From assembly GCF_019459675.1 (NCBI RefSeq), contig NZ_JAIBFH010000435.1:1-40599 (forward strand): a stretch of DNA of 40,599 bases, read 5' to 3'. Both the position numbers and the translations under genes were made by a program. Source of the stretch: Arenimonas sp. (GTDB taxonomy: Bacteria > Pseudomonadota > Gammaproteobacteria > Xanthomonadales > Xanthomonadaceae). Below are positions 1 through 31,807 of the stretch, in pieces; within the stretch, counting starts at the first letter, position 1; every line of letters begins with the position of its first letter. Under the pieces are notes generated by a model. It was given only the letters and a program-made list of their open reading frames with translations, was not told where the DNA came from and did not search any database.

Positions 1-2333
1 CCGCCGCCGCGGCGCGCCCCGAAGGCGGGGCGGTGCTGGTGCTCGGGCAGGCCGGGCCGTAGACGTCGCCGGTAAAGGGGGGAGCGCTTCAGGGGCAGGC
101 CAACGGCGCCGCGCTGGCGGCGTGCGCCGTGCCGCGCGAGGAATGGGGCCCGTGGTTCCAGGCGCTGGTGCGTGAACTGGCCCACGACCGCCCGCTGCCG
201 GCGGCGCTGTTTTCAGCAGCGCTGGCGGAAAACCGACGCTGGGAAGGCCCGGACCGTCCGCTGGCGAATCTGCCGGCCCCGATCGTGGTCGGCGACGCTG
301 ATTTCCTGCTCAACACCAGCCGCATCTCGATGGCGGCGCAAGTGCTGGGGCACGCGTTGAACGAGATACCGCCCGATCTACTGCGGCCGACGCCGGAGCT
401 GAGTGCGCAGCTGGGTTTCAACGGCCTCGGTACGGTGGGCGACGCCTTTGCACGCCGCGTCGAAGGCTTTACCTTCCGCAATGAAGAGGGCGACGCTACC
501 GCCCTGGTGCGCATCCGGCGCGAGGTAGAGCAGCAACAGGGCGCACCCATCCCCGGCCCCGTCCGCAATTTCAGCCATGCCCCGCCGGTGGAGTTCGCCG
601 AGACATCGCCGCCGGACGAAGGCCTCGCCCCCGCGCCACCGCCAGGCAGCGAAGACGCGCCGGCCGCGGCCGGTGCCGAGCCTCACGAAGACGCGGCGCT
701 CCCCAAGCGCCACGTGCAGGCGAAGCTGCTGCAGCACGACGGCCACGACGTCAGCGACCAGCCCATGGCGCCTGCCCAGGCCTACCGCCTGCGCCTGCAT
801 ATCGGCTCGCGCTCGCAGGGCGTTCGCATCGTCGCCAGTGCCGCGCTGGACGAATCCGAACTGCCACAAAGCGAAGACGGCCATCCGTTGGCCATCGCCT
901 ACATCCCGCTCTCGCGACTTGACGAAGATGACGCCGGGCCGCCGGCACCACAGCGTGCCGAGCTGAAGCTGCCGGCATCCGGCGACAGCACGCCCGTCGA
1001 GTTCGCACTGCAGCCGGGACGAGACCCCACACGCTTTCGCGCACGCATCGTGGTGATGTTCGCCAACCGCGTGCTGCAGACGCTGCTGCTTGATGCCAAT
1101 GCCACCGGCCTGCTGCAGCTGCAGGAAGAGAACGCCTACCAGCCAACGCTGGCGCCGGACCCCAAGACCCGTCCGGCGCAGATTGCGTTCGTCATCAACG
1201 ACGATCTGCAGGGCCGGCCCGGCCTGGCGACGCTCACACTCGACTCGTCGTCGTTCCTGGACAGCGGCAGCCTTGCGGCTGAAATTGCCGCCATCTCGGT
1301 CATGATGGAAGAAGCCAACAGGGATGCGATGGGCACCACGCCGGCGTTTGACGATGAGGACGCGGTGCGGCGGCTGCGCGGGCTTGCCATGCACGGCTCG
1401 GCCTTGCTGGCGGAAGTGCAGCGTGCGCACGGGGTCGCGCCACTCGCGGCATCAACGCACGTGCAGCTGGTGGAAGCCGTAGCCGAGGCCTTCTTCCCCA
1501 TTGAGTTCCTGTACGACGGCGAGCCGCCGCTGCCCGACGCCACGCTTTGCCCGAACGCCCGCGCCGCCCTGGACGACCCTGCCGTGCACGCCGGCTGTCC
1601 ACATGCCGCCAGCGAAAACCACGTGTGCCCGGCGCAGTTCTGGGGCCTGCGCAAATGCATCGAACGGCTGCCGGCCCGGCCGCCCGCGGCCCGGCAGGCA
1701 GACGCAGGCGGGGCGCCGCTACCGGAGTCGGCCCCCGCCGGACGGCTCGGCCCGTTCCAGCGCGCGCGGGTCGCCGCGAGCAAGATCGCGCGCGCGCAGA
1801 TGGACGCGCAAACCGGACTTCCCGCCCGCGTGCGCGCTTCGGTACCGCAGGTGACCGTGGCCACTGACTGGAAAGACTGGAGGCGGCAGGTCAGCGCGGT
1901 GTCCCCGGACCTGATGATCCTGCTTCCGCACTCGCTGATACTTGCCGACGTGCCCAATATGGCGGCCCTGGAAATATCGCTTTCCGAGCTTCCGTCCAGC
2001 AGCATCCGCACTTCTTACGTACGCGGCACCCTGGCGCCGGGCCCGGTGGTGCTGCTGCTGGGCTGCAGCACGGCCCTGACGAAGGCGCCGTTCCTGAACT
2101 TCGTCAGGCAGTTCCAGCAGGCCGGTGCGCCGGTGGTGGTGGGTACGCTGGCCATCATCCACGGCACGCAGGCGGCGGCGATTGCCGCGCGCTTCCTGGA
2201 CATGATGGACGCCAACGCTGCGCCGCGGCGCTTCGACGAAGTGCTGCTCGACTTCAAGCGCCGACTGCTCGGCGAAGGGCACCAGGGCGTGCTTTCGTTG
2301 ATCAGCTACGGCCACGCGTCCTGGGAAATATAG
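1..2333 (+). CDS. CHAT-domain (caspase-like clan CD) protease, multidomain, probably 5'-truncated
   Basis: ORF 129-2333. The C-terminal ~390 aa have CHAT hallmarks: His in MILLPHS (codon 1929-1931), Cys in VVLLLGCST (2064-2066), then FVRQFQQAGAPVVVGTL and the end LISYG. Also FFPIEFLYD and FWGLRKCIER motifs, and a central beta-rich domain (YRLRLHIG...FRARIVVMFANRVLQ) resembling TCAD7. The same frame is open from base 3 except for a TAG at 60-62, and GTG129 has no clear RBS, so the true start is probably upstream of the window. Confidence 0.8.
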
Positions 2334-2343
2334 GAGACACCTG

Positions 2344-3456
2344 ATGTTGCGTATCCACATGCTGCATGCCGACCACGGCGACTGCCTCTGGGTAGAGTAC
2401 GGCGAAGCTGACGCGCCATCGCCGAAGCGGATCCTGATTGACTGCGGCACCGAGCGCACCTACCGCGAGCACCTGAAGGCGAAGATCGAACAGACGGTTG
2501 CGGCCGAAGGGGGCGTGCGGTTCGAGCTTTTCGTGGTCACCCATGTGGACTCCGACCATATCGGCGGCGCGCTGCGCTTCCTCGACGACTGCGCGGCGCC
2601 CGATAGCGGGGTGGATATCGGCGAAGTCTGGTTCAACGGCTACAAACACCTCGACAACCATTCGCCCTACGAGCTGGGCGGCGCCCAAGGCGAACTGCTC
2701 AGCGAGCTTCTGCTGCGGAGCGACTGGGACTGGAACACCAGTTTCGGAACCCGTGCGGTGATGGTCCCGGACGAGGGCGACCTGCCGCAGGTGGATGTCG
2801 CGGGAATGCGGCTCACGCTGTTGTCGCCGGACTTTGCCCGGCTGCAGAAGCTGAAGCCTGAGTGGGCGGAGAACGCCCGCAAGAACGGCCTGACGGCGGG
2901 CGGCCGATTGCCCGAAGACGAAGCCGTGCTCAACGACGGTTGGCTGGGCGAAGACCAGTCCGGTGCAGTGGATGATCTGGCCGCCTCCGTTTTCATCCAG
3001 GATTCGGCCAAGGCCAATGGCTCCAGCATTGCCTTCATAGCCGAGTACGACGGCGAGCGGGTGCTGTTCGGCGCCGACGCGCACCCGTCCATGCTGCTGC
3101 AAAGCGCACGCCGCGAGCCGCTCGCCGATCTCGAGACCGTCGAATTGGCGGCCTTCAAATTGCCACACCACGGCAGCCGCAAGAACGTCTCGGTGGCGAT
3201 GCTGGAACGGTTTCCGGCCGCCCATTACCTGGTGTCCACCACCGGCCAGCAGTTCATGCATCCGGACGCGCCGGCCATTGCGCGCGTGGTGCACACGGCC
3301 AGCGGCCGCGGCGCCTGCCTGCACTTCAACTGCCGCAGTGACTACAACGTGCGCTGGGATGACGCCGATTGCCAGGACGAGTACGGCTACAGCGCCGTCT
3401 ACGGCGAGGACGGCACGGGCCTGGTGGTGGAAATCGAGACGGAGAGTGACCCATGA
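2344..3456 (+). CDS. MBL-fold metallohydrolase, ComEC/Avs1a-like (putative nuclease)
   Basis: Motifs HGDCLW, ILIDCG, THVDSDHIGG, VWFNG, NGSSIAF, LFGADAH, KLPHHGS, STTG..FMHP. GGAG RBS lies directly at the stop of the upstream gene. Confidence 0.9.
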   Translation: MLRIHMLHADHGDCLWVEYGEADAPSPKRILIDCGTERTYREHLKAKIEQTVAAEGGVRFELFVVTHVDSDHIGGALRFLDDCAAPDSGVDIGEVWFNGYKHLDNHSPYELGGAQGELLSELLLRSDWDWNTSFGTRAVMVPDEGDLPQVDVAGMRLTLLSPDFARLQKLKPEWAENARKNGLTAGGRLPEDEAVLNDGWLGEDQSGAVDDLAASVFIQDSAKANGSSIAFIAEYDGERVLFGADAHPSMLLQSARREPLADLETVELAAFKLPHHGSRKNVSVAMLERFPAAHYLVSTTGQQFMHPDAPAIARVVHTASGRGACLHFNCRSDYNVRWDDADCQDEYGYSAVYGEDGTGLVVEIETESDP

Positions 3457-4526
3457 AACGCCTGATCCTTTGCGCCGATGGCACCTGGAACATCCGTGAC
3501 CAGCTCGACGAGAAGTCGGGCAAGCGCCGGCCCACCAGCGTAACCAAGCTGGCCCGTTCGGTGCGCGCGCGCGGACGCGACGGCGTGGACCAGGTGGTGT
3601 TCTACCTGGACGGCATCGGTACCAACGGCGGCATGGACAAGCTGACGGGCGGTGCGTTTGGCCGCGGCATCGAAGACAACGTGCGCGAGCTGTATCGTTT
3701 CCTGGTCTACAACTATGTGCCGGGCGACCAGCTGTTCCTGTTCGGCTTCAGCCGAGGCGCCTTCACCGTGCGCACGCTGGCGGGCTTCCTCAATGCCGTG
3801 GGTCTGGCCGGAAAGGACGACGACTATTACGTGCCCGAGCTGTACGCCATCTATGACAAGTCCCTCAGCGCCACCGATCCGCGATATGCGAGGGTGAAGC
3901 AGCAGTGCGAGGGCATCCGGCCGGCGCCACCGATCCGGATGATCGGCGTCTGGGACACCGTCGGCGCGCTCGGTGCGCCGGGCGTGCTGGGCAAGTTCAT
4001 CCATCCGGGCAAATACAAGTACCACGACGTCAGCCTGGTGCCGCAGATCGAGAATGCCTTCCACGCCATGGCCATCGGCGAGCGCCGCAAGGCCTTCGCA
4101 GTGAACCTGTGGCAGCGGCCGGCCGGCTGGACCGGGCATCTGGAACAGGCGTGGTTCGCGGGCGTGCACTGCGGGGTGGGCGGCGGCTATCGGCCCGACG
4201 GGCTGTCCAACGAGGCGCTGCACTGGATGGTGGAGAAGGCCGAAGCACTCGGGCTGGAAGTGGACAGCGATTACCTCGCGCATTTCCGCCCCTGCTTCAA
4301 CTCCGAGCACCACGAGTCCTTCGACGTCAAGTACCGCCTGATGGGCGAGCACGTACGCCCCATTGGCGCCGCGCGCGACAGCGGTGAACTGCTGCACCAG
4401 TCGGTGCTGGACCGCATGGCGCACGCGCCCAGCGCCTACCGCCCCGCGAACGTGCCGGACCCGGCGTCGACCGCCGCCTTGCCGGTGTGCACCACCACGC
4501 GCCTGCCCCGCGGCACCCCCTGCTGA
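3453..4526 (+). CDS. DUF2235 / Tle1-like alpha/beta-hydrolase (putative phospholipase)
   Basis: LILCADGTWN, YLDGIGT, GFSRG nucleophile elbow (3744-3758), IGVWDTVGALG, HAMAIGERR, WFAGVHCGVGGGY. ATGA overlap with the MBL gene. Confidence 0.92.
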   Translation: MKRLILCADGTWNIRDQLDEKSGKRRPTSVTKLARSVRARGRDGVDQVVFYLDGIGTNGGMDKLTGGAFGRGIEDNVRELYRFLVYNYVPGDQLFLFGFSRGAFTVRTLAGFLNAVGLAGKDDDYYVPELYAIYDKSLSATDPRYARVKQQCEGIRPAPPIRMIGVWDTVGALGAPGVLGKFIHPGKYKYHDVSLVPQIENAFHAMAIGERRKAFAVNLWQRPAGWTGHLEQAWFAGVHCGVGGGYRPDGLSNEALHWMVEKAEALGLEVDSDYLAHFRPCFNSEHHESFDVKYRLMGEHVRPIGAARDSGELLHQSVLDRMAHAPSAYRPANVPDPASTAALPVCTTTRLPRGTPC

Positions 4527-5913: not shown

Positions 5914-6882
5914 TCAGGGACATCCCGCTTCGCGCGCGCTGAACAGCGCGCTCATCCGGGCCAGCACTTGCCGCAACGCCGGCGCCATCGCCTCACCGTC
6001 CACGACTTCCCCGTCCTGGCCAATCATCAGCACCTGTGCCAGCAGGCTTTCAGGCGAGTCCGCGCCTACGCGCAGCAGGCTGTGGGTGCGGGTCTCGGGT
6101 TCCAGCACGCCGCACCACACGGGCAGCTTGGCCTGCAGCTCGGGCACGGTGCCGGCGATGCGCAGCGTGATGCGGCAGGTGAACGGCTCGTAGGCGATGC
6201 CGCGCTCCAGGCGCGCAGCGACGTCGTCGGGCACCGGGCGCGGTACGAACGCGTCGCCTGCGTGCGGCGCGCCTTCGATGCGATCCACGCGGAAGCTGCG
6301 CCAGTCGCGGCGGTCGCTGTCCCAGGCGATCAGGTACCAGCGGCGGCCGAAGTTGGCCAGGCGCAGCGGCTGCACGTCGCGCTGGCTGGTTTCACCCGCG
6401 TGCTTTCGATAGCGGAACTGCAGGCGGCGGTGGTCCCGACAGGCCGTGGCCAGTTCACTGAGCAGGCCGGCGTCCACCAGCGCCGGGCCGTTGCGCAGCG
6501 ACAGCGTGACCGCATGCAGCGCGGTGGCGCGGCGGCGCAGGCGCTGGGGCATCAACTGGTCGAGCTTGCCCATCAGCCGCAGCGCCGTGGCCTCGATGCC
6601 GCCGACGCTGGCGCTGGCCGCGCGCAGGGCAATGGCCAGCGCCCCGGCCTCTTCGTGGTGCAGCACCAGCGGCGGCAGGACGGCGCCGCGGCCCAGCGCA
6701 TAGCCGCCGCCCACGCCCGACGAGGCTTCCACGGGATAGCCGAGCTCCCGCAATCGGTCGACGTCGCGGCGCACCGTACGCGCATCCACCCCGAGTTCCG
6801 CCGCGAGGTCCGCGCCGGGCCAGTGCCGCCGCGACTGCAGCAGGCTGGCCAAGCGGAGCAGGCGGGCGGAGGTGGACAGCAT
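5914..6882 (-). CDS. HTH-WYL-WCX transcriptional regulator (YafY family)
   Basis: N-terminal HTH (LAAELGVDARTVRRDVDRLRELGYPV), GGGY, WYLIAWD, WRSFRVDRI. Confidence 0.95.
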   Translation of the reverse strand: MLSTSARLLRLASLLQSRRHWPGADLAAELGVDARTVRRDVDRLRELGYPVEASSGVGGGYALGRGAVLPPLVLHHEEAGALAIALRAASASVGGIEATALRLMGKLDQLMPQRLRRRATALHAVTLSLRNGPALVDAGLLSELATACRDHRRLQFRYRKHAGETSQRDVQPLRLANFGRRWYLIAWDSDRRDWRSFRVDRIEGAPHAGDAFVPRPVPDDVAARLERGIAYEPFTCRITLRIAGTVPELQAKLPVWCGVLEPETRTHSLLRVGADSPESLLAQVLMIGQDGEVVDGEAMAPALRQVLARMSALFSAREAGCP

Positions 6883-6892
6883 TGCGGCAGAC

Positions 6893-6926
6893 TATCGAGG
6901 ACAGTAAATGTCCGCAATCCTCGATA
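6893..6926. promoter_or_regulatory. Palindromic operator between the divergent WYL regulator and GST genes
   Basis: GGACA-GTAAA-TGTCC dyad (6899-6913), overlapped by the TATCGAGGA...TCCTCGATA inverted repeat. Confidence 0.6.
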
Positions 6927-6960
6927 CCTTTCCCTACCCCCATCAGCCCAAGGAAAAGCC

Positions 6961-7602
6961 ATGACCACGCCCGCGCTCACCCTGTATCACAACCCCAGGT
7001 CCCGCTCGGCCAGCGCGCGCGTGCTGCTCGAGGCGCTGGGCGTGCCCTACGAAGTGAAGCTCGTGGACTTCGCCGCCGGCCAGACCCGCACGCCCGAGTT
7101 CCTGGCCATCAACCCCTTGGGCAAGCTGCCCACCCTGGTGCACGACGGCGCGGTGGTCACCGAACAGGTGGCCATCACGATCTATCTCGCCGACCGCTTC
7201 CCGGCCGCCGGCCTCGCGCCCGCGTTCGACCATCCGCAGCGCGGCCCCTACCTGCGCTGGCTGGCCTTTTATGCCGCCTGCTTCGAGCCGGCGCTGATGG
7301 ACCACGCCTTCAAGCGCGCGCCCATCGACCCCGCCACTGCGCCCTGGCGCGACTACGACACGGTGATCGAAACCCTGGTGGCGCAGCTGTCGCGCGCCGA
7401 CTACCTGGTGGGCGACACGCTCACCGCCGCCGACCTGCTGTGGGGCACAGGACTGCGCTGGACCACCGAGTTCGGCATCGTGCCCAAGCTGCCGGTGATC
7501 GTGGCCTACCTCGAACGCGTGGCCGCGTATCCAGCCGTGATCCGCGCCGCCAGCCTCGACGCCGCCTTGACAGCGCAGATCGACCCGCCCGCCGCTCCTT
7601 GA
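6961..7602 (+). CDS. Glutathione S-transferase family protein
   Basis: LYHNPRSRS, EFLAINPLGKLPTL, EQVAITIYLAD, YLVGDTLTAADL. AAGGA RBS before ATG6961. Confidence 0.95.
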   Translation: MTTPALTLYHNPRSRSASARVLLEALGVPYEVKLVDFAAGQTRTPEFLAINPLGKLPTLVHDGAVVTEQVAITIYLADRFPAAGLAPAFDHPQRGPYLRWLAFYAACFEPALMDHAFKRAPIDPATAPWRDYDTVIETLVAQLSRADYLVGDTLTAADLLWGTGLRWTTEFGIVPKLPVIVAYLERVAAYPAVIRAASLDAALTAQIDPPAAP

Positions 7603-7726: not shown

Positions 7727-8866
7727 ATGCGCCTGCCAAAGCTGCGTCACCTTGCCCTTGCCGTGTCGCTTGCCGTCGCGGCGGGCTGTGCGTCGGCGCC
7801 TGTTGCGCCCTTGGAGTCGTCTGCGGCTGCCGCGGCGCCGGTGGCGGCCAGCGTCGACGTGGGCGAGATCGCGGGGGCGCCGTACCGCATCGACATTCCC
7901 GCCAACTGGCAGGGCGACCTGCTGCTGTACGCGCGCGGCTACGTGCCGCCCGGCACGCCGCGCGAAAGCGCAACCGATCGCAACGCAACCGACGAGTGGG
8001 CGCTGGCGCAGGGCTACGCCATCGCGCGCAGTGATTACGCGGCGCTCGGCTGGTCGGTCGCCGAGGCGGTGGAAGACAGCGAGCGGCTGCGCGCGCACTT
8101 CGTTGGCCGGCACGGCGCGCCGCGCCGCACTTTCCTGATGGGGCATTCGATGGGTTCGCACATCGCGCTGGCGGTGCTGGAGCGCTACCCGCAGCATTAC
8201 GCCGGCGCACTGGCGCTGTGCGGCGCCAACGGGCCGGCGGCAGAACTCTTTGGCGACCACCTGATGCCAGCGGTGGTGGCGTTCGACTATTTCTTCCCCG
8301 GCGCGATGGGCCTGGCGCCGGGCGGCCTGGCCGATCCGGCGTCGCCGGCGTGGCCGGACATGGAGGCCATGGAGCGCGCGCTGCAGGGCAACGAGGCCAT
8401 CGCCCGCCGGCTGGCCGAGCGCTTCGACATTCCGCGAGACGGCCTGGCTGGCGGCGTAATGATCCGCTACGCCGTGCTGCACGAACTGATTCAGCGCGCA
8501 GGCGGCTTCCCGGTGGACAACCGCGACGTGCGCTACACGGGCTTGGGCGATGACGCCGCGTTCAACGCCGGCGTTCGCCGCTACGCCGGCGACCCCGCCG
8601 CGATGGCGTACGCCGCCCGCCATGCCGCACTCACCGGCGCCGCACCGCGACCGGTGGTGATGATGGACAACCACGCCGACCCCACCATTCCCACCGAAGT
8701 GACGCGGCGCTACGCGGCCCTGGCCACGGCGGCCGGGCAGGGCGCGAACGTGGTGGTGCTGCCCGCGCAGGGCCAGGGCCACTGCGAATTCACCGCCGAA
8801 CACCAGCAGCAAGCCATGGCGACGCTGGCCGGCTGGGTGGACAGCGGGTCGCGGCCCGCGCCTTGA
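7727..8866 (+). CDS. Exported alpha/beta hydrolase (lipoprotein)
   Basis: Signal peptide with lipobox AAGC; GHSMG nucleophile; candidate Asp (ADPTIP) and His (GHCEF); GGAG RBS. Confidence 0.85.
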   Translation: MRLPKLRHLALAVSLAVAAGCASAPVAPLESSAAAAAPVAASVDVGEIAGAPYRIDIPANWQGDLLLYARGYVPPGTPRESATDRNATDEWALAQGYAIARSDYAALGWSVAEAVEDSERLRAHFVGRHGAPRRTFLMGHSMGSHIALAVLERYPQHYAGALALCGANGPAAELFGDHLMPAVVAFDYFFPGAMGLAPGGLADPASPAWPDMEAMERALQGNEAIARRLAERFDIPRDGLAGGVMIRYAVLHELIQRAGGFPVDNRDVRYTGLGDDAAFNAGVRRYAGDPAAMAYAARHAALTGAAPRPVVMMDNHADPTIPTEVTRRYAALATAAGQGANVVVLPAQGQGHCEFTAEHQQQAMATLAGWVDSGSRPAP

Positions 8867-10176
8867 CGGGACCCACTAATCCCAAGGCCATCACCGACAT
8901 CTGCGGCCTGAACTGCGCTGCGCCACTGTCGGCCGAAGACCTGCACCGGGCCTGCTTCTGCCTGGCGGTGGATCCGGCGCAGCTGCGGGCGCATCTGGAC
9001 CGCGTGCTGGCCGCGCACGGCACGTCGGCGCCGCTGGCCCAAACCCACCCGCACCTGTTCGCGGCGCTGCCGGTGTTCGTGCCGGCGGCCAGCGTGCGGG
9101 CGATGGAACATGTGGTCAGCGCGATCGAAGTCGCCGTGGCCACGCCGGCTTATCGCAACGCGGTGCGCGCCTGGGCCCCGGACATCGCGGTGCTCGACCC
9201 GGGTTCGCCCGGCGGCCTGCTGGGCCTGGACTTCCACCTCGGGCCCGACGGACCGCGCCTGATCGAGATCAACACCAACCCCGGTGGCGTGATGATCAAT
9301 GCGCTGCTGGTGAAGGCGCAGCAGCTGTGCATGCCCGCGCTGAGCGCGCCCGCGGTCGCCGTGGCCGACGTGCAGGACGCGGCGCTGGACGTGCTGATGG
9401 CCGAATGGGACGCCCAGTCCGGTGGCCAGCGCAAAGGCCTGGTGGCGATCGTGGACACAGCGCCCCGGCAGCAGTATCTGTACCCGGAGTTCGTGCTGTT
9501 CCAGGACCGCTTCCGGGTGCGCGGCATCGAGGCGGTGGTGTGCGACCCGGCGGAACTGTCGTATGCCGACGGCCAGCTGCGGCTTGGCGACCGCGCGATC
9601 GGCTTCGTCTACAACCGCTGCACCGATTTCGCACTGGCCGAACCGGCCTCCGCCGCCCTGCGCGCCGCTTATCTGGACCGCGCCGTGGCCATCAGCCCGC
9701 ATCCGTGGAGCCACGCGCTGTACGCCGACAAGCGCAACCTGCGCCTGCTGGGCGACCGCGACTTCCTCGAGGCCGCTGGCGTCGGCGCTGAGGATGTGGC
9801 CTGCCTGACGCAGTGCGTGCCGCACACCGAAGTGATGACCGAGGCGAACCGCGACCAACTCTGGCAGCGCCGCAAGCAGCTTTTCTTCAAGCCGGCGGGC
9901 GGCTTCGGTGGCCGCGCCAGCTATCGCGGCGACAAACTCACGCACAAGACCTGGCAGCAAATGGCCGGCACCGACTACGTGGCGCAAGCGCTGGTGCCGC
10001 CCAGCCAGCGCCATCTGAGCGAGGGCGACGTGCCGCTGAAGGTGGACATCCGCTGCTACGCCTACCGAGGCAAGCCGCTGCTGTTCGCCGCGCGCACCTA
10101 CCAGGGGCAGACCACCAACTTCCGCACGCCGGGCGGTGGCTTCGCGCCCGTGCTGACGCTGGTGGATCCGGCATAG
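8863..10176 (+). CDS. Circularly permuted ATP-grasp (glutathionylspermidine-synthase-like) amide ligase, substrate unknown
   Basis: GLDFH...PRLIEINTN, VYNR, ADKRNL, FFKPAGGFGGR, YVAQ, KVDIR, AARTY, GGG match the CP-ATP-grasp pattern. TTG start overlapping the upstream stop (start uncertain). Confidence 0.75.
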   Translation: MTGPTNPKAITDICGLNCAAPLSAEDLHRACFCLAVDPAQLRAHLDRVLAAHGTSAPLAQTHPHLFAALPVFVPAASVRAMEHVVSAIEVAVATPAYRNAVRAWAPDIAVLDPGSPGGLLGLDFHLGPDGPRLIEINTNPGGVMINALLVKAQQLCMPALSAPAVAVADVQDAALDVLMAEWDAQSGGQRKGLVAIVDTAPRQQYLYPEFVLFQDRFRVRGIEAVVCDPAELSYADGQLRLGDRAIGFVYNRCTDFALAEPASAALRAAYLDRAVAISPHPWSHALYADKRNLRLLGDRDFLEAAGVGAEDVACLTQCVPHTEVMTEANRDQLWQRRKQLFFKPAGGFGGRASYRGDKLTHKTWQQMAGTDYVAQALVPPSQRHLSEGDVPLKVDIRCYAYRGKPLLFAARTYQGQTTNFRTPGGGFAPVLTLVDPA

Positions 10177-10897: not shown

Positions 10898-11200
10898 CCC
10901 CGAATTTCTGTACTTTTCCACAGCCTTGCCCCCCCGACCAGCCGGACTTGTTGGCCAAGGATGCAGGCTCCTGCAAGCATTGGATGTACGCTTGCGCACC
11001 CAGAGCGCCAGCGCGCTTCCCAAGCCTGCCGCCGTCCCAGAGGAACGAGGAACGGGGTCAGGTTCACTTATCGTGGCCTCCCCACCCACGCAGCCCGGCC
11101 CTCACCGCACCTTTGACCCACGTCAAGGCGCTGTCGCACAGGCGGCGTAGGGTTCCCGGTGAATCGCCCCGTTCAGGGCGTCGCTTCCGAGAACGCGGCC

Positions 11201-12223
11201 ATGAAGCATTTCCTAGACACCCAGGATTTCTCACGCGGCGAGCTGCTGCGGATGATGGCGCTCATCGGCCTGCTCAAGCGCGCCGACAAGCAGGGCGCGC
11301 TGCCGCCGCTGCTGGCGGGCGCGTCGCTGGGCATGATCTTCGAAGAGCCGTCCACCCGCACCCGGGTGTCGTTCGAAGTGGCCATGACCAAGCTCGGAGG
11401 CCACGCGTTGTACCTCAAGCCCGGCGAAATCCATCTGGGCGAACGCGAGAACATCAAGGACACCTCGCAGGTGATCAGCCGCATGGTGGACGCCATCGAG
11501 GCACGAACGCTCAAGAACAAGACCCTGCTGGACCTGGCCGCCAACGCCACCGTCCCGGTTATCAACGGCCTCACGGACTACAACCACCCCACCCAGGTGG
11601 TGTGCGACGTGTTCACGATGCTCGAGCACAAGCTGCCCGAGAAGGAACTGTCTGACCTGCGCGTGGTGTTCATCGGCGACGCCACCAACGTGTGCGCCTC
11701 GCTGCTGATGATGTGCACGCGCATGGGCATGCACTTCACCCACGTGGCGCCGCCGAAATACCAGGCGCCGGAAGCCTGGCAGCGCATCGGGCGCGAGAAC
11801 TGTGCGGTGTCGGGCGGCAGCCTCACCATCAGCGATGACCCGGTGGCGTCCGTGCGCGACGCCGATTTCATCTACACCGACCTGTGGTGGTGGGTGGGTC
11901 AGGAGGCCGAGATCCCCGAGCGCCGCGCCGCCTTCATGCCGCGCTACCAGGTGAACCTGGCGCTGTTCGAAGCGGCCCCGCCGCACGCCAGGATGATGCA
12001 TTGCCTGCCGGCCAGCCGCGGCGTGGAGGCTACCGACGCCGTGCTCGACCACCCGCGCTCGATCATCTACGACCAGTCCGAGAACCGCCTGCACACCGAG
12101 AAGGCCATCCTGGTGACCTTCATCCACCCGCGCCTGCGCAAGCCGCCCGAGGCCCTCAGGCAGTGGCACGCCGGACAGATCCATTCCTTCCTCAGCGAGC
12201 CCGCGCTCGAATCCGCACCCTGA
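11201..12223 (+). CDS. ptcA: Putrescine carbamoyltransferase-like transcarbamylase (AguB/PtcA)
   Basis: STRTRVSFE, NGLTDYNHPTQ, HCLP. FIGDATNVC and NCAVSGGS resemble PTC. Lacks the OTC SMG motif and has a C-terminal extension. First gene of an agu operon. Confidence 0.8.
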   Translation: MKHFLDTQDFSRGELLRMMALIGLLKRADKQGALPPLLAGASLGMIFEEPSTRTRVSFEVAMTKLGGHALYLKPGEIHLGERENIKDTSQVISRMVDAIEARTLKNKTLLDLAANATVPVINGLTDYNHPTQVVCDVFTMLEHKLPEKELSDLRVVFIGDATNVCASLLMMCTRMGMHFTHVAPPKYQAPEAWQRIGRENCAVSGGSLTISDDPVASVRDADFIYTDLWWWVGQEAEIPERRAAFMPRYQVNLALFEAAPPHARMMHCLPASRGVEATDAVLDHPRSIIYDQSENRLHTEKAILVTFIHPRLRKPPEALRQWHAGQIHSFLSEPALESAP

Positions 12224-12248
12224 ACCCCCCGCACCGCCGGAGACTCCG

Positions 12249-13679
12249 ATGAACGCAAACAGCGCCAGCGCCGCCAAGCCAACGCCCCACGCCCAGGAGG
12301 GTCGCGGCTTCAAGCGCGTCCTGGGCCTGCTGGACATGACCCTTTTCACGGTCTGCGCCATCCTGGTGATCGACACCCTGGCCGCCTCCGCGGCCATCGG
12401 CCCGTCGGCCATGACCTGGTGGTTGATAACGCTGGTGCTGTTCTTCATTCCCTACGCGCTCATGACGGCCGAGCTGGGCGCCGCCTACCCGCGCGAAGGC
12501 GGCATCCAGGGCTGGATCCGCAAGGCCTACGGCGACCGCTGGGCGGCGCGCGCCACCTGGTGCTACTGGATAAACGTGGCGCTGTGGATGCCGTCGGTGT
12601 ACATCCTGTTCGCGGGCATGTTCGCGCAGATGTTCTGGCCCGAGATGGGACTGGGCGCGAAGATCGCGATGGCGGTGGTGCTGTCCTGGCTGACGGTGGG
12701 CTTTGGCATCCTGAGCCTGGAAGTGAGCAAGTGGATCCCGAACATCGGCGCGGTCATCAAGGCCGCGATCATGCTGCTGATCGGCGGCGGTGGCATCTAC
12801 TACGTCACGCAGAACGGCACCGCGAACGAATTCACCGTGGCGACGCTGACGCCGCAGCTGGGCGCCAGCCTCGCCTTCCTACCGGTCATCGTCTACAACT
12901 ACCTGGGCTTCGAGCTGATGTCGGGCGCCGGCGAAGAAATGAAGAACCCGGCGCGCGACGTGCCGCGGGCGGTGATCATTTCCGGCGTGTCCATCGCGGC
13001 GTTCTACCTGCTGGCCACGTTCGGCATCCTGGCCGTGCTGCCGCAGGCCGACATCGGCCTGGTCGAGGGCCTGCTGGACACCGTGGCCAAGATTTTCGGT
13101 GATTCCGCCGCCGGCAAGGCCCTGGTGACTGCGGTGGGAATCGGTGCGCTGTACACGTTCTTCGCCAACATGGTCACCTGGTCGCTGGGCGCCAACCGCA
13201 CGGCGCAGGCGGCTGCGGCGGACGGCGAACTGCCGGCGTTCCTGGGCGTGCTGCACAAGCGCCACAAGACGCCGGTGGGCGCCTTCCTGGCGATGGGCGT
13301 GGTGGGAACGGCCGTGATCTTCGGCTACGGCTTCCTGGCGCAGTCCACCGAGGACCTGTTCTGGAGCCTGTTCGCGTTCAGCTCGATCATCTTCCTGCTG
13401 CCCTACCTGCTGCTGTTCCCGACCTTCGTGCGCCTGCGTCGCATTGATCCGGGCACGCCGCGACCGTATCGCCTGGGGGGTCCGACGGCCTGGCTGTGGC
13501 TGCTGGCCACGGTGTGCGTGCTGTTCATCCTGCAGGCGATCGTGTTCTTCGTGTGGGTGCCGGGCGAGCCGATTGACTGGACGGCGGCCGGCCCGATCAT
13601 CATCGGCGTCGTGGTGACCCTGGCGCTGGGCGAGGTGCTGGTGCAGCGTCATCATCGCCGGCGCGGGCAAACGCCGTGA
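12249..13679 (+). CDS. aguD: APC-family permease, probable agmatine/putrescine antiporter
   Basis: About 12 TM segments; [40 protein letters not shown]....EEMKNP. Lies between ptcA and aguA. Confidence 0.85.
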
Positions 13680-14779
13680 CCCGCACCCTGGCCAGCACCC
13701 CGGCCGCCGACGGCTTCCGGATGCCGGGCGAGTTCGAGCCGCACCAGGGCACCTGGATGCTCTGGCCCGAGCGCCCCGACACCTGGCGCTGGGGTGCCAA
13801 ACCCGCGCAGGCTGCCTATGCCGAAGTGGCGCGCGCCATCAGTGCGTTCGAGCAGGTGACGATGTGTGTTTCGCCCGGCCAGTTCGCCAACGCCCGGCAG
13901 GTGCTGCCCGAGGCCGTACGCGTGGTCGAGATGACCAGCAACGACGCCTGGGTGCGCGACTGCGGCCCGAGCTTCCTGATCAACGACGCGGGCGAAGTGC
14001 GCGGCGTGGACTGGCGGTTCAATGCCTGGGGCGGGCTGGAAAGCGGCCTGTACTCACCGTGGGACCAGGACGACCTGGTGGGGCAGAAGATCCTGGAAGT
14101 GGAGAATGTGCCGCGCTACGCCGCGCCACTGATCCTTGAAGGCGGCTCGATCGAGGTGGACGGCGACGGCACGCTGCTCACCACCCGCGAATGCCTGCTC
14201 AACCACGACCGCAATCCCGACCTGACGCCTGACGAGATCGAAGCCAAACTGGGCGAATACCTCGGCATCCGCAAGATCATCTGGCTTGAGAAGGGCGTCT
14301 ACAACGACGAAACCGAAGGCCACGTGGACAACCTGGCGCGCTTCGTTCGGCCGGGCGTGGTGATGCTGGACTGGACCGACGACACCGCCGACCCGCAGTA
14401 CCCCATCAGCCTGGACGCCTTCCAGCGGCTCAGCCGGGCCACGGATGCGCGCGGGCGCAAGCTGGAGGTGATCAAGCTTCCCCAGCCCGGCCCGCTGCAC
14501 ATGACCCAGGACGAGTCGCGCGGCGTGGACGTGGTGGAAGGCACGCTGCCGCGCGAGGCGGGTCTGCGGCTGGCGGCGTCGTACGTGAACTTCTACGTGT
14601 GCAACGGCGCGGTGATCATGCCGCTGCTGGACGAGCGCACCGACGCGGCGGCGGCCGGTCTGATCCAGCGCGCTTTCCCCGATCGCCGGGTCATCGGCGT
14701 GGCGGCGCGGGAAATCCTGCTCGGCGGCGGCGACATCCACTGCATCACCCAACAGCAGCCCATGGCCGGGCGGCGCTGA
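13676..14779 (+). CDS. aguA: Agmatine deiminase
   Basis: [61 protein letters not shown] with the catalytic Cys. GTGA overlap with aguD. Confidence 0.97.
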
Positions 14780-14792
14780 GCCGGGAAGGCGC

Positions 14793-15728
14793 TTACCACC
14801 AGGACAAGTCCGGTTCGTCCGATGCGCTGTCGGGCACGATCCAGGTGCCGGCGTTGCCGGCCAGGATGGCCTCGAGTTCGGTGATTGATCCGATCGCGGC
14901 GCGCTTTCCCGCCTTGGCCATCGCCACGGCGGAGGCCACTTTGGGCCCCATCGAGCCCGTCGCGAAGGCATGCTGCGCCAGGCCGCGCGGGGTTGCCCGC
15001 TTCAGGGCGCGCACCTGCGGCGTGCCGAAATCCGTCATCACCGCGGCCACGTCGGTCAGCATCACCAGGGCATCGGCGCCGAGTTCGATGGCCAGCAGCG
15101 CGCTGGCGGCGTCCTTGTCGATCACCGCTTCCACGCCGCAGAGCCGGCCGTCGGCATCCATCGCCACCGGGATGCCGCCGCCCCCGGCGCAGATCACCGT
15201 CACCTGCGCCTCGGCCATGCGCTTGATCGCCGGCAGGGCCAGTATGCGCAGTGGCGCGGGCGAGGCGACCACGCGGCGCCAGTGCGCACCGTCCGGTGCA
15301 ACGGTCCAGCCTTTTTCAGCCGCCAGCGCTTTGGCTTCGGCCTCCGGGTACACCGGGCCAATGGGTTTGGCCGGGCTGGCGAAGGCCGGGTCGCGCGAAT
15401 CCACCACCACCTGCGTGAGCAGGGTGGCGAACTGGCGGCCGGGCAGCTGGTTGATCAATTCCTGTTCCAGCACGTAGCCGATCATGCCCTCGCTTTCGGC
15501 GCCCAGGACGTCGAGCGGAAACGCTGGCCGTGCGGGATCCGCCATCGCCTGCAGCGCCAGCAGACCCACCTGCGGGCCGTTGCCGTGGGTCAGCACCACG
15601 TCGTGCCGGCGGATCACCGGCGCCAGGCCAGCGGCCGCGGCGGCGATGTTGGCGCGCTGCAGCGCGGGGTCGGGCGGCTGGCCGCGCTTGAGCAGCGCAT
15701 TGCCGCCCAGTGCGATGACGAGATTCAT
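14793..15728 (-). CDS. arcC: Carbamate kinase
   Basis: VIALGGNALL, THGNGPQVG, EGMIGY, KPIGP, WRRVVASP, GGGGIP, EAVIDKD, GSMGPKV. Confidence 0.96.
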   Translation of the reverse strand: MNLVIALGGNALLKRGQPPDPALQRANIAAAAAGLAPVIRRHDVVLTHGNGPQVGLLALQAMADPARPAFPLDVLGAESEGMIGYVLEQELINQLPGRQFATLLTQVVVDSRDPAFASPAKPIGPVYPEAEAKALAAEKGWTVAPDGAHWRRVVASPAPLRILALPAIKRMAEAQVTVICAGGGGIPVAMDADGRLCGVEAVIDKDAASALLAIELGADALVMLTDVAAVMTDFGTPQVRALKRATPRGLAQHAFATGSMGPKVASAVAMAKAGKRAAIGSITELEAILAGNAGTWIVPDSASDEPDLSWW

Positions 15729-15830
15729 TTCGGGCGACACTCCAGCAGGGGTCGGCGTTTGATTTCGCGCCCGTGCCCCGTCGCTGTCAAGGCGGCCGCG
15801 GCATGCCGCCGGCGCGGGGCGCTCCAGCGC

Positions 15831-31309: not shown

Positions 31310-31807
31310 ATGATCCGCTACGTATCGGGCGACCTGCTCAAGAGCCAGGCCCAGGCCATCGCCCACGGCGTTGCTCCCAACGATGATTTCGGCCAGGGCC
31401 TGGCCCATTCCCTGCGCGAGCAGCAGCCGGCGATGTACAAGGACTTCCGCCACTACTGCCAGACCCAGCATCCCAAGGCCGGCGGTCTGTGGACCTGGGC
31501 CGGTGCGCAGGGGCCGCGCATCGTGGCGCTGTTCACCCAGGAAGGCAGCTACGACCACGGCGCCAAGCCGGGCAAGGCCTCCGCGGCCAATATCAACCAC
31601 GCGCTCAAAGCGCTGGTGGCCGAAGCCGCACGCGAAGGCTGGACCAGCCTGGCCCTGCCGCGCCTGGCGACCGGCGTGGGCGGCATGGACTGGAGCGAGG
31701 TGAAGCCGCTGTTGGAACACCACCTGGGCGAGCTGGCGATCCCGGTGCTGGTGTACGAAACCTTCCACGCCGGCGAACAGGCCGATGAGCCGTTGACTGC
31801 GGCCTGA
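31310..31807 (+). CDS. Macro domain protein (Poa1p/TARG1/DarG-like branch)
   Basis: IRYVSGDLL, AIAHGV...FGQGLA, SLALPRLATGVGGMDW.EV..L; AGGA RBS. Confidence 0.88.
   Translation: MIRYVSGDLLKSQAQAIAHGVAPNDDFGQGLAHSLREQQPAMYKDFRHYCQTQHPKAGGLWTWAGAQGPRIVALFTQEGSYDHGAKPGKASAANINHALKALVAEAAREGWTSLALPRLATGVGGMDWSEVKPLLEHHLGELAIPVLVYETFHAGEQADEPLTAA

Follow-up and report, generated by a model that had tools for sequence, protein, structure and literature searches.

What a caspase-like protease, a metallo-β-lactamase (MBL)-fold hydrolase and a lipase do together when they are encoded one behind the other is the question raised by the beginning of contig NZ_JAIBFH010000435.1 from Arenimonas sp. (assembly GCF_019459675.1), the 40,599 nt of which are called the window below. 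The window starts with three plus-strand open reading frames (ORFs; Table 1), encoding a CHAT/separase-type cysteine protease (gene 1), an MBL-fold protein (gene 2) and a DUF2235 protein (gene 3). The operon probably works as an abortive-infection switch similar to Canu, whose protease would cleave the MBL protein in both loops and so yield a non-specific DNase. The protease and nuclease core is essentially that of Canu, an anti-phage system published in 2025 (Tuck et al., PMC12799240), and the DUF2235 protein is likely an optional accessory lipid-ester hydrolase that fills the slot which patatins fill elsewhere. The arrangement described in the original prediction, with three co-oriented genes, a 10-nt gap, an ATGA overlap and intact catalytic residues, was confirmed from the ORFs and motifs. 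An AGGAG overlaps the stop codon of gene 1 before the 10-nt spacing to gene 2, and the ATGA shared by genes 2 and 3 lies at 3453-3456. The products of genes 2 and 3 had been described as lacking a signal peptide, and none was seen in a crude hydrophobicity check. A promoter and terminator scan of the locus gave results at chance level.

For gene 2, the motifs HVDSDH and KLPHHGS were present, and the PADLOC matches were LmuA (1e-64), Avs1a (3e-43) and RTasMBL. Among 61 MBL relatives dereplicated at 88% identity, the metal-site residues H67, D69, D71, H72, D245, H275, H276 and H306 were kept in all. According to the text of Tuck et al. (PMC12799240), this MBL family consists of pro-DNases opened by cuts in two loops, Canu loci carry a caspase upstream, and defence by KaeCanC requires both G104 and G189. 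In the corresponding loops of gene 2, the Leu-Gly pairs are Leu111-Gly112 and Leu201-Gly202, and an [LM]G pair was found in loop 1 of 61/61 and loop 2 of 60/61 MBL proteins, against 6% and 12% in same-sized control windows elsewhere in the proteins.

The association of the protease with the MBL gene was determined in 87 protease loci, comprising the best 80 of 215 metagenome matches and 7 genome loci, ranked by similarity to the relative G017 and with near copies included. G017 carries a complete operon, encoding a 1014-amino-acid (aa) protease, the MBL protein and the DUF2235 protein, with a divergent gene upstream, and a protein of Arenimonas metalli is 97% identical to the G017 protease. 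The MBL gene was located within 2.2 kb downstream of the protease gene in 84 of the 87 loci; two further loci end at a contig edge, and one (L035) has no MBL gene. An independent MBL search in 400 class genomes gave five non-self matches, four of them beside a CHAT protease and three beside a lipase. In the genus, the MBL gene is patchy (6 of 83 genomes), and the same six genomes carry a DUF2235 gene directly behind it; a seventh, distant DUF2235 gene in the genus stands alone. The ratio of non-synonymous to synonymous substitution rates in four pairs was 0.11-0.33 for the MBL gene and 0.07-0.23 for the DUF2235 gene, indicating purifying selection on both. The idea that a caspase-clan protease gates an MBL nuclease is thus supported by the co-occurrence, the paired Leu-Gly loops and the mechanism published in the texts of PMC12799240 and PMC12642450.

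A profile built from 21 protease relatives matched 1475 clusters (50% identity) at E 1e-30 or better, a number that does not imply a shared architecture for all of them. The protease profile was found in 0/400 other phylum genomes, 0/250 genomes in the phylum of G1034 and 2/299 other family genomes; this survey scored two to three candidates per genome, so the protease is rare in the genomes searched, not absent. No relative was found in viral contigs, and no RNA source was listed. In L035 (3058-9310), the sole protease locus without an MBL gene, the protease gene stands behind TPR-CHAT and trypsin genes, and in L039 a PIN-domain gene (8486-8977) lies between the protease and MBL genes.

The likeness to Canu (CanABC of Klebsiella aerogenes) consists of a caspase-clan protease gene with an intact His-Cys pair upstream of a gated MBL nuclease gene, a glycine kept in both gating loops, a β-sandwich domain in the protease, and Canu-type nucleases that nest among the MBL relatives of the window. 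In a quick tree of 72 MBL proteins, two C14-partnered MBL proteins (L006 and L011), which served as stand-ins for CanC, nested inside the long-CHAT set, and an approximately unbiased test against holding the long-CHAT set together gave a borderline p of 0.046. MBL proteins paired with other CHAT families (L103, L104 and L105) also fell within the same radiation. The differences concern mostly the protease. In the text of PMC12799240, CanA is a 390-aa C14/MALT1-like protein with a C-terminal Ig fold that needs CanB, whereas the protease here is of the CHAT/separase type, has about 1000 aa and a predicted dead N-terminal module, and its β domain precedes the catalytic module. The CanA proteins of L006 and L011 match PF00656, but the window protease and its aligned relatives do not. 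In most loci no gene lies between the protease and MBL genes, a lipase often flanks the pair, and the loop motifs are D/G-x-L-G here versus L-E-x-x-G in Canu. By gene order, no CanB-like gene is present (10 nt between protease and MBL genes; no co-oriented upstream gene in G017), and a phmmer search with CanB, which also found none, was insensitive and missed L011's own. The locus therefore agrees with the Canu prototype in nuclease and gene order and departs from it in the type of CanA and in CanB. The loci L006 (7501-11101) and L011 (9296-13165) look like canonical Canu loci, with a C14 caspase gene, a gene for a 446-aa protein and an MBL gene with the loops L-E-x-x-G-[AS].

Evans et al. (PMC12642450) describe, in its text, a caspase-associated MBL clade (clade 2) and a caspase-activated α/β-hydrolase zymogen. 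The likeness lies in an MBL gene adjoining a gene for a caspase-like cysteine protease and in the precedent of a hydrolase activated by double cleavage; the difference is that only trypsin-clade MBL proteins were tested there and that the hydrolase was cut between Arg and Gly. A homologous gated MBL protein is also found in AVAST type 1 (Avs1a-b-c), HamMAB and the trypsin-MBL modules of Lamassu and DRT. In contrast to AVAST type 1, gene 2 scored 214 bits against the NCBIfam Avs1a equivalog (cut-off 420), and downstream of the MBL gene the window has the DUF2235 gene and then a gene for a GSDH-family protein, with no trypsin-STAND gene. The original prediction did not recognise the three-gene combination as a named system. 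For the protease-MBL core this did not hold, since it maps onto Canu and the caspase-clade MBL; the trio with the lipase was found in no literature description, neither in the parts consulted of 10.1101/2025.07.28.667249, 10.1101/2025.09.30.679545, PMC13069673 and 10.1101/2025.09.03.673762 nor as a CHAT, MBL and lipase combination elsewhere. CHAT, patatin and DUF2235 do not occur in the text of Evans et al. (PMC12642450), and the term "CHAT" is absent from the main text of Tuck et al. (PMC12799240), the figures and supplement of which (Figs S1-S21), like the figures of Evans et al., may show such loci.

The same gated MBL protein also occurs with a different protease, CHAT-TPR-S, in L103 (6791-11060, minus strand; order DUF2235, MBL, protease) and L104 (10514-13515, plus strand). 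In L105 (7273-11205), patatin and MBL genes converge on another CHAT protein, and the MBL loops are Arg/Ser-rich without Leu-Gly, which hints at cleavage of another specificity. In L051 (3237-4916), L067 (3868-5151) and L070 (3098-4174), the same operon includes a second, distant MBL-fold gene.

For gene 1, the original prediction of a CHAT protease was upheld at the level of the clan. The Pfam CHAT match was weak (18.5 bits, below the cut-off of 24), but a fold search with the predicted structure placed the protein in the caspase clan, and the catalytic His878 and Cys925 (G017 numbering) were invariant in 149/149 aligned full-length homologs, as were Cys756 and Cys784; Cys774 was kept in 140. 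The G017 protease model had a mean predicted local distance difference test score (pLDDT) of 81, and its C-terminal half matched Csx29 (VIA Z 18.0) and separase (Z 17.3). A match to TCAD7, suggested as a profile to check, was not obtained in Pfam-type scans of gene 1 and its relatives. TPR, SAVED and Cas matches were likewise absent from Pfam and PADLOC results for the protease and 21 aligned relatives and for the 23 other window proteins. In fold, the live module resembles Csx29/TPR-CHAT of type III-E CRISPR, SAVED-CHAT, DdvA and separase, and the dead module resembles them more weakly; unlike Csx29 and SAVED-CHAT, the protease has no TPR, SAVED or Cas component, and it has two tandem modules per chain.

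From the models, the protease is predicted to consist of a dead module, a Pro-rich linker, an all-β domain and a live module. Folded alone, G017 residues 1-385 reached pLDDT 95, and the VIA top 10 comprised separase, gingipain, DdvA, Csx29 and SAVED-CHAT (Z 9.3-6.6). At the dyad-equivalent positions, His was present in 13/149 homologs and the five commonest residues did not include Cys; the register was fixed by visual inspection together with a profile alignment that was not significant. When the profiles of the two modules were compared, the register was correct but the probability (1.8%) was not significant, Foldseek found no match to the N-terminal model at E ≤ 0.001, and the atlas matches of this module were below 0.9. 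The assignment of a dead module was therefore based on the VIA Z values of 6.6-9.3 and the consistent top 10. The atlas look-alikes of the β domain sit in other CHAT, gingipain-like and TIR proteins, and none names a family. In the linker, no conserved Leu-Gly that would suggest self-cleavage was found, and the protease showed no recognisable lipid-binding domain. In L082 (2633-5518) and L106 (9635-12949), an unrelated region replaces the dead N-terminal module; these are possible sensor swaps.

In the proposed mechanism, a trigger would relieve or oligomerise the protease. Since there is no separate sensor gene, the trigger would be read by the protease itself, most likely, judging from the architecture, by the dead N-terminal module and the β domain, and these would either keep the live module inactive or promote oligomerisation. 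The protease would then cut the MBL protein at both Leu-Gly loops, probably between Leu and Gly by homology with I118 and G119 of HamM, and the cut MBL protein would be a DNase leading to cell death, as in the published relatives. The original prediction had placed any sensor gene upstream of the contig start. That was not borne out, because in G017 the gene upstream of the complete operon is divergent, and what is missing in the window is the N-terminus of the protease itself. The pairing of cFLIP with caspase-8 offers an analogy for a dead module next to a live twin. It is unlikely, but conceivable, that the operon is a self-contained death switch of this kind, in which the dead separase-like module is the sensor or decoy for its live twin and a Leu-Gly-specific protease fires the DNase together with an exchangeable lipase, the fold of which is one of two unrelated kinds.

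At the start of the window, gene 1 is truncated. Its frame is open from position 63, about 215 N-terminal codons are missing, and the missing part was found on no other contig of the same genome. The family profile matches gene 1 from position 15-24 onward, across one in-frame TAG that the original prediction had not noted. Against contigs assembled from the public runs X1, X2 and X3, the first 109-132 bases of the window contig differed at 9, 9 and 18 places, and no difference was seen in the neighbouring segments of X1 and X2; assembled contigs were compared, not raw reads, and they could come from a sister strain. Since all three runs give G at position 60 and the differences cluster in the contig end, the TAG is most likely a contig-end assembly error. 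That the operon is a pseudogene in its own genome, as the stop in the assembly would suggest, is extremely unlikely in view of the sense codon in the three runs and the error-rich contig end.

Table 1. Features of the operon at the start of the window.
Feature	Position	Strand	Basis
Gene 1, CHAT/separase-type cysteine protease; 3' three quarters of a gene for about 1000 aa	1..2333	+	Truncated by contig start; 40% identity to G017 ORF residues 292-1058
Tail of N-terminal CHAT/separase-like module, predicted catalytically dead	3..540	+	Model of G017 residues 1-385
In-frame TAG in gene 1, most likely contig-end consensus error	60..62	+	Position 60 is G in public runs X1, X2 and X3 (2 studies)
Pro/Ala-rich low-confidence linker	541..704	+	Sequence; pLDDT <50 for G017 388-466
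All-β domain, likely Ig-like, without Pfam name	705..1130	+	Only strands in model
Live separase/Csx29-like module; His 1929-1931, Cys 2064-2066, three conserved Cys at 1548, 1596 and 1626	1173..2333	+	VIA; alignment
Gene 2, gated MBL-fold pro-nuclease, predicted CanC-like, 370 aa	2344..3456	+	PADLOC/NCBIfam matches; metal ligands in 61/61 relatives; 40% identity to C14-partnered Canu nuclease
Gating loop 1, Leu111-Gly112, predicted cut site	2674..2679	+	Aligned by eye with KaeCanC G104 and HamM I118-G119
Gating loop 2, Leu201-Gly202, predicted cut site	2944..2949	+	KaeCanC G189 in same loop, by eye
Gene 3, stand-alone DUF2235/Tle1-like α/β hydrolase, 357 aa	3453..4526	+	PF09994, 254 bits; triad invariant in 20/20

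Gene 3 matched PF09994 (1.7e-75), with the motifs GFSRG, WDTVG and GVH and the triad Ser100 (3750), Asp168 (3954) and His239 (4167). The occurrence of lipases was determined in the 27 dereplicated loci that are flanked on each side by 1.5 kb or more, with one query per lipase family, so that others could be missed. A lipase gene was adjacent in 12, being a patatin gene directly upstream in eight, a DUF2235 gene downstream in three and a DUF2235 gene upstream in one; in two loci a patatin gene lay close by without being both adjacent and co-oriented, and 13 had neither. Since the whole genome of the window strain contains one weak patatin match and one DUF2235 gene, chance adjacency of a lipase is unlikely. 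On the protease tree, the lipase state changed eight times over 34 labelled rows, L046 (patatin) and L050 and L062 (DUF2235) shared one clade with 100% support, and DUF2235 was gained at least twice. We lean slightly towards a contribution of the DUF2235 protein in the form of membrane damage or a lipid signal, and we doubt that the protease cuts it.

Whether the lipase belongs to the switch can be explained in several ways. If one protease had two zymogen effectors, the lipase would also be cut and activated, and DNA and membrane would be destroyed together. Two unrelated lipase folds with intact active sites recur beside the pair, all six carriers in the genus have DUF2235, a caspase-activated α/β-hydrolase zymogen is described in the text of PMC12642450, and the DUF2235 proteins of the window clade carry G-x-L-G just past the catalytic Asp, resembling loop 2 of that clade's MBL proteins. 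On the other hand, the patatins have no evident shared cut motif by eye, the DUF2235 proteins have no gating insertion, the motif is also present where no CHAT gene accompanies it (L111/L134), and the lipase is missing in 13/27 loci, so that we consider this explanation improbable; a complex prediction of the β domain and live module of the protease with the DUF2235 protein scored 0.00, which weighs neither way. The reverse order, in which the lipase would detect damage to the membrane or set free a lipid that switches the protease on, would fit the adjacent patatin genes, which lie directly upstream of the protease gene in 10/11 cases (61 dereplicated loci), the lack of any other sensor gene and the interchangeability of two folds of the same expected chemistry. 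It is quite unlikely, because a lipase is missing from about half of the loci with sufficient flanks and the protease has no identified lipid-binding domain. It is very unlikely that the DUF2235 gene is carried along as a passenger or encodes an orphan type VI secretion lipase with no connection to the pair. In 301 order-level genomes, 22 of 23 non-self DUF2235 matches had neither an MBL nor a CHAT gene within 1.5 kb, and the DUF2235 of the window clade may be a single gain, but besides its gains on the protease tree DUF2235 was acquired once more next to another CHAT family (L103), purifying selection acts on the MBL and DUF2235 genes, and the six carriers in the genus are concordant. The protein shares the catalytic domain and Ser-Asp-His triad of the type VI secretion phospholipases Tle1/TleB, as in TleB in the text of PMC12421835, but has 357 aa versus 779 aa in the solved relative and no VgrG or immunity neighbour; TssB (PF05591) and VgrG (TIGR03361) were not found in the window genome (99.7% complete), and the E. 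coli control was positive.

A further alternative keeps the biochemistry and replaces the phage by another trigger, as in a stress or kin-conflict cell-death module. The tie to classical defence islands is weak, the loci more commonly adjoin other CHAT, TPR, trypsin, nSTAND1 or KAP genes, and the position in the genus is chromosomal and stable. Against this stand the tested protease-MBL pairs, every one of which is reported to defend against phage in the texts of PMC12799240 and PMC12642450, and L012, which lies inside a type I restriction locus; we assign it a distinctly low probability.

The Canu-like reading is itself opposed by several findings. The tested Canu protease had no BLAST similarity to the window protease (best E 0.16) and belongs to a different family. 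The dead module is not essential across the protease family: it was present in 36/38 loci in which 300 or more residues precede the β domain, 22 further loci were shorter or cut, and six uncut proteases (690-780 aa) were without it. No adjacent lipase was found in 13/27 loci, and no gating insertion relative to unassociated homologs was seen in the DUF2235 proteins, among the alignment rows listed. The G-x-[LI]-G motif of the DUF2235 proteins (12/15 versus 1/23) was also seen in a copy without a CHAT gene nearby (L111/L134), and it tracks the subfamily, not the protease. The protease-MBL distance correlation of 0.65 is expected of any co-inherited neighbours. Enrichment in defence islands, which the original prediction proposed to check, was weak: in the PADLOC scan, which covered 131 of the 190 proteins flanking 19 loci, one clear defence neighbour was found (L012, type I restriction and reverse transcriptase), with weak matches at L038, L047 and L051. 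Genus carriers keep the operon in one chromosomal neighbourhood, and the other window genes are ordinary. A defence role is thus supported by homology and patchiness, not by neighbourhood.

The protease-gated MBL nuclease is already published, and the core is no surprise. What is new here is a protease of the separase type that is predicted to contain a dead copy of its own module, together with the lack of a sensor gene, exactly predicted cut sites and a lipase slot that has repeatedly been occupied by one or other of two unrelated folds. The three-gene system could be used to study how proteases of the caspase clan detect infection when no receptor is encoded separately, and whether a single protease can license two effectors; it may also provide a protease specific for Leu-Gly. 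If true, the self-contained two-effector switch would form a large branch (up to about 1475 clusters) distinct from CanABC.

With Pfam, other CHAT, TPR, trypsin, nSTAND1, KAP, PIN and transposase genes were found beside several loci, the transposases at L023 and L071. For the DUF2235 genes, L134 (6077-8226) has an outgroup MBL gene directly followed by a DUF2235 gene whose product is 58% identical to that of the window, with no protease identified in 16 kb. In L135 (1036-8512, minus strand), DUF2235 heads a co-oriented run of genes for an HNH-ATPase, an HNH-looking ORF without Pfam match, a phosphoesterase and phosphatidylserine decarboxylase. At 4077-4085 of the window, the DUF2235 protein has AIGERR, as does L021, which is closest to it, in place of the [AS][IL]DE of nearly all homologs. 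Elsewhere in the window, a WYL/HTH regulator is divergent from a glutathione S-transferase gene (5917-7599), and a 437-aa ORF without a Pfam match at 1e-5, by eye ATP-grasp ligase-like, is also present in G017 (8863-10176). An agmatine-deiminase-type cluster (11159-15740) comprises carbamoyltransferase, amino-acid permease and deiminase genes, with a carbamate-kinase-like gene on the opposite strand, and a stand-alone Macro-domain gene adjoins selO (31310-31804).

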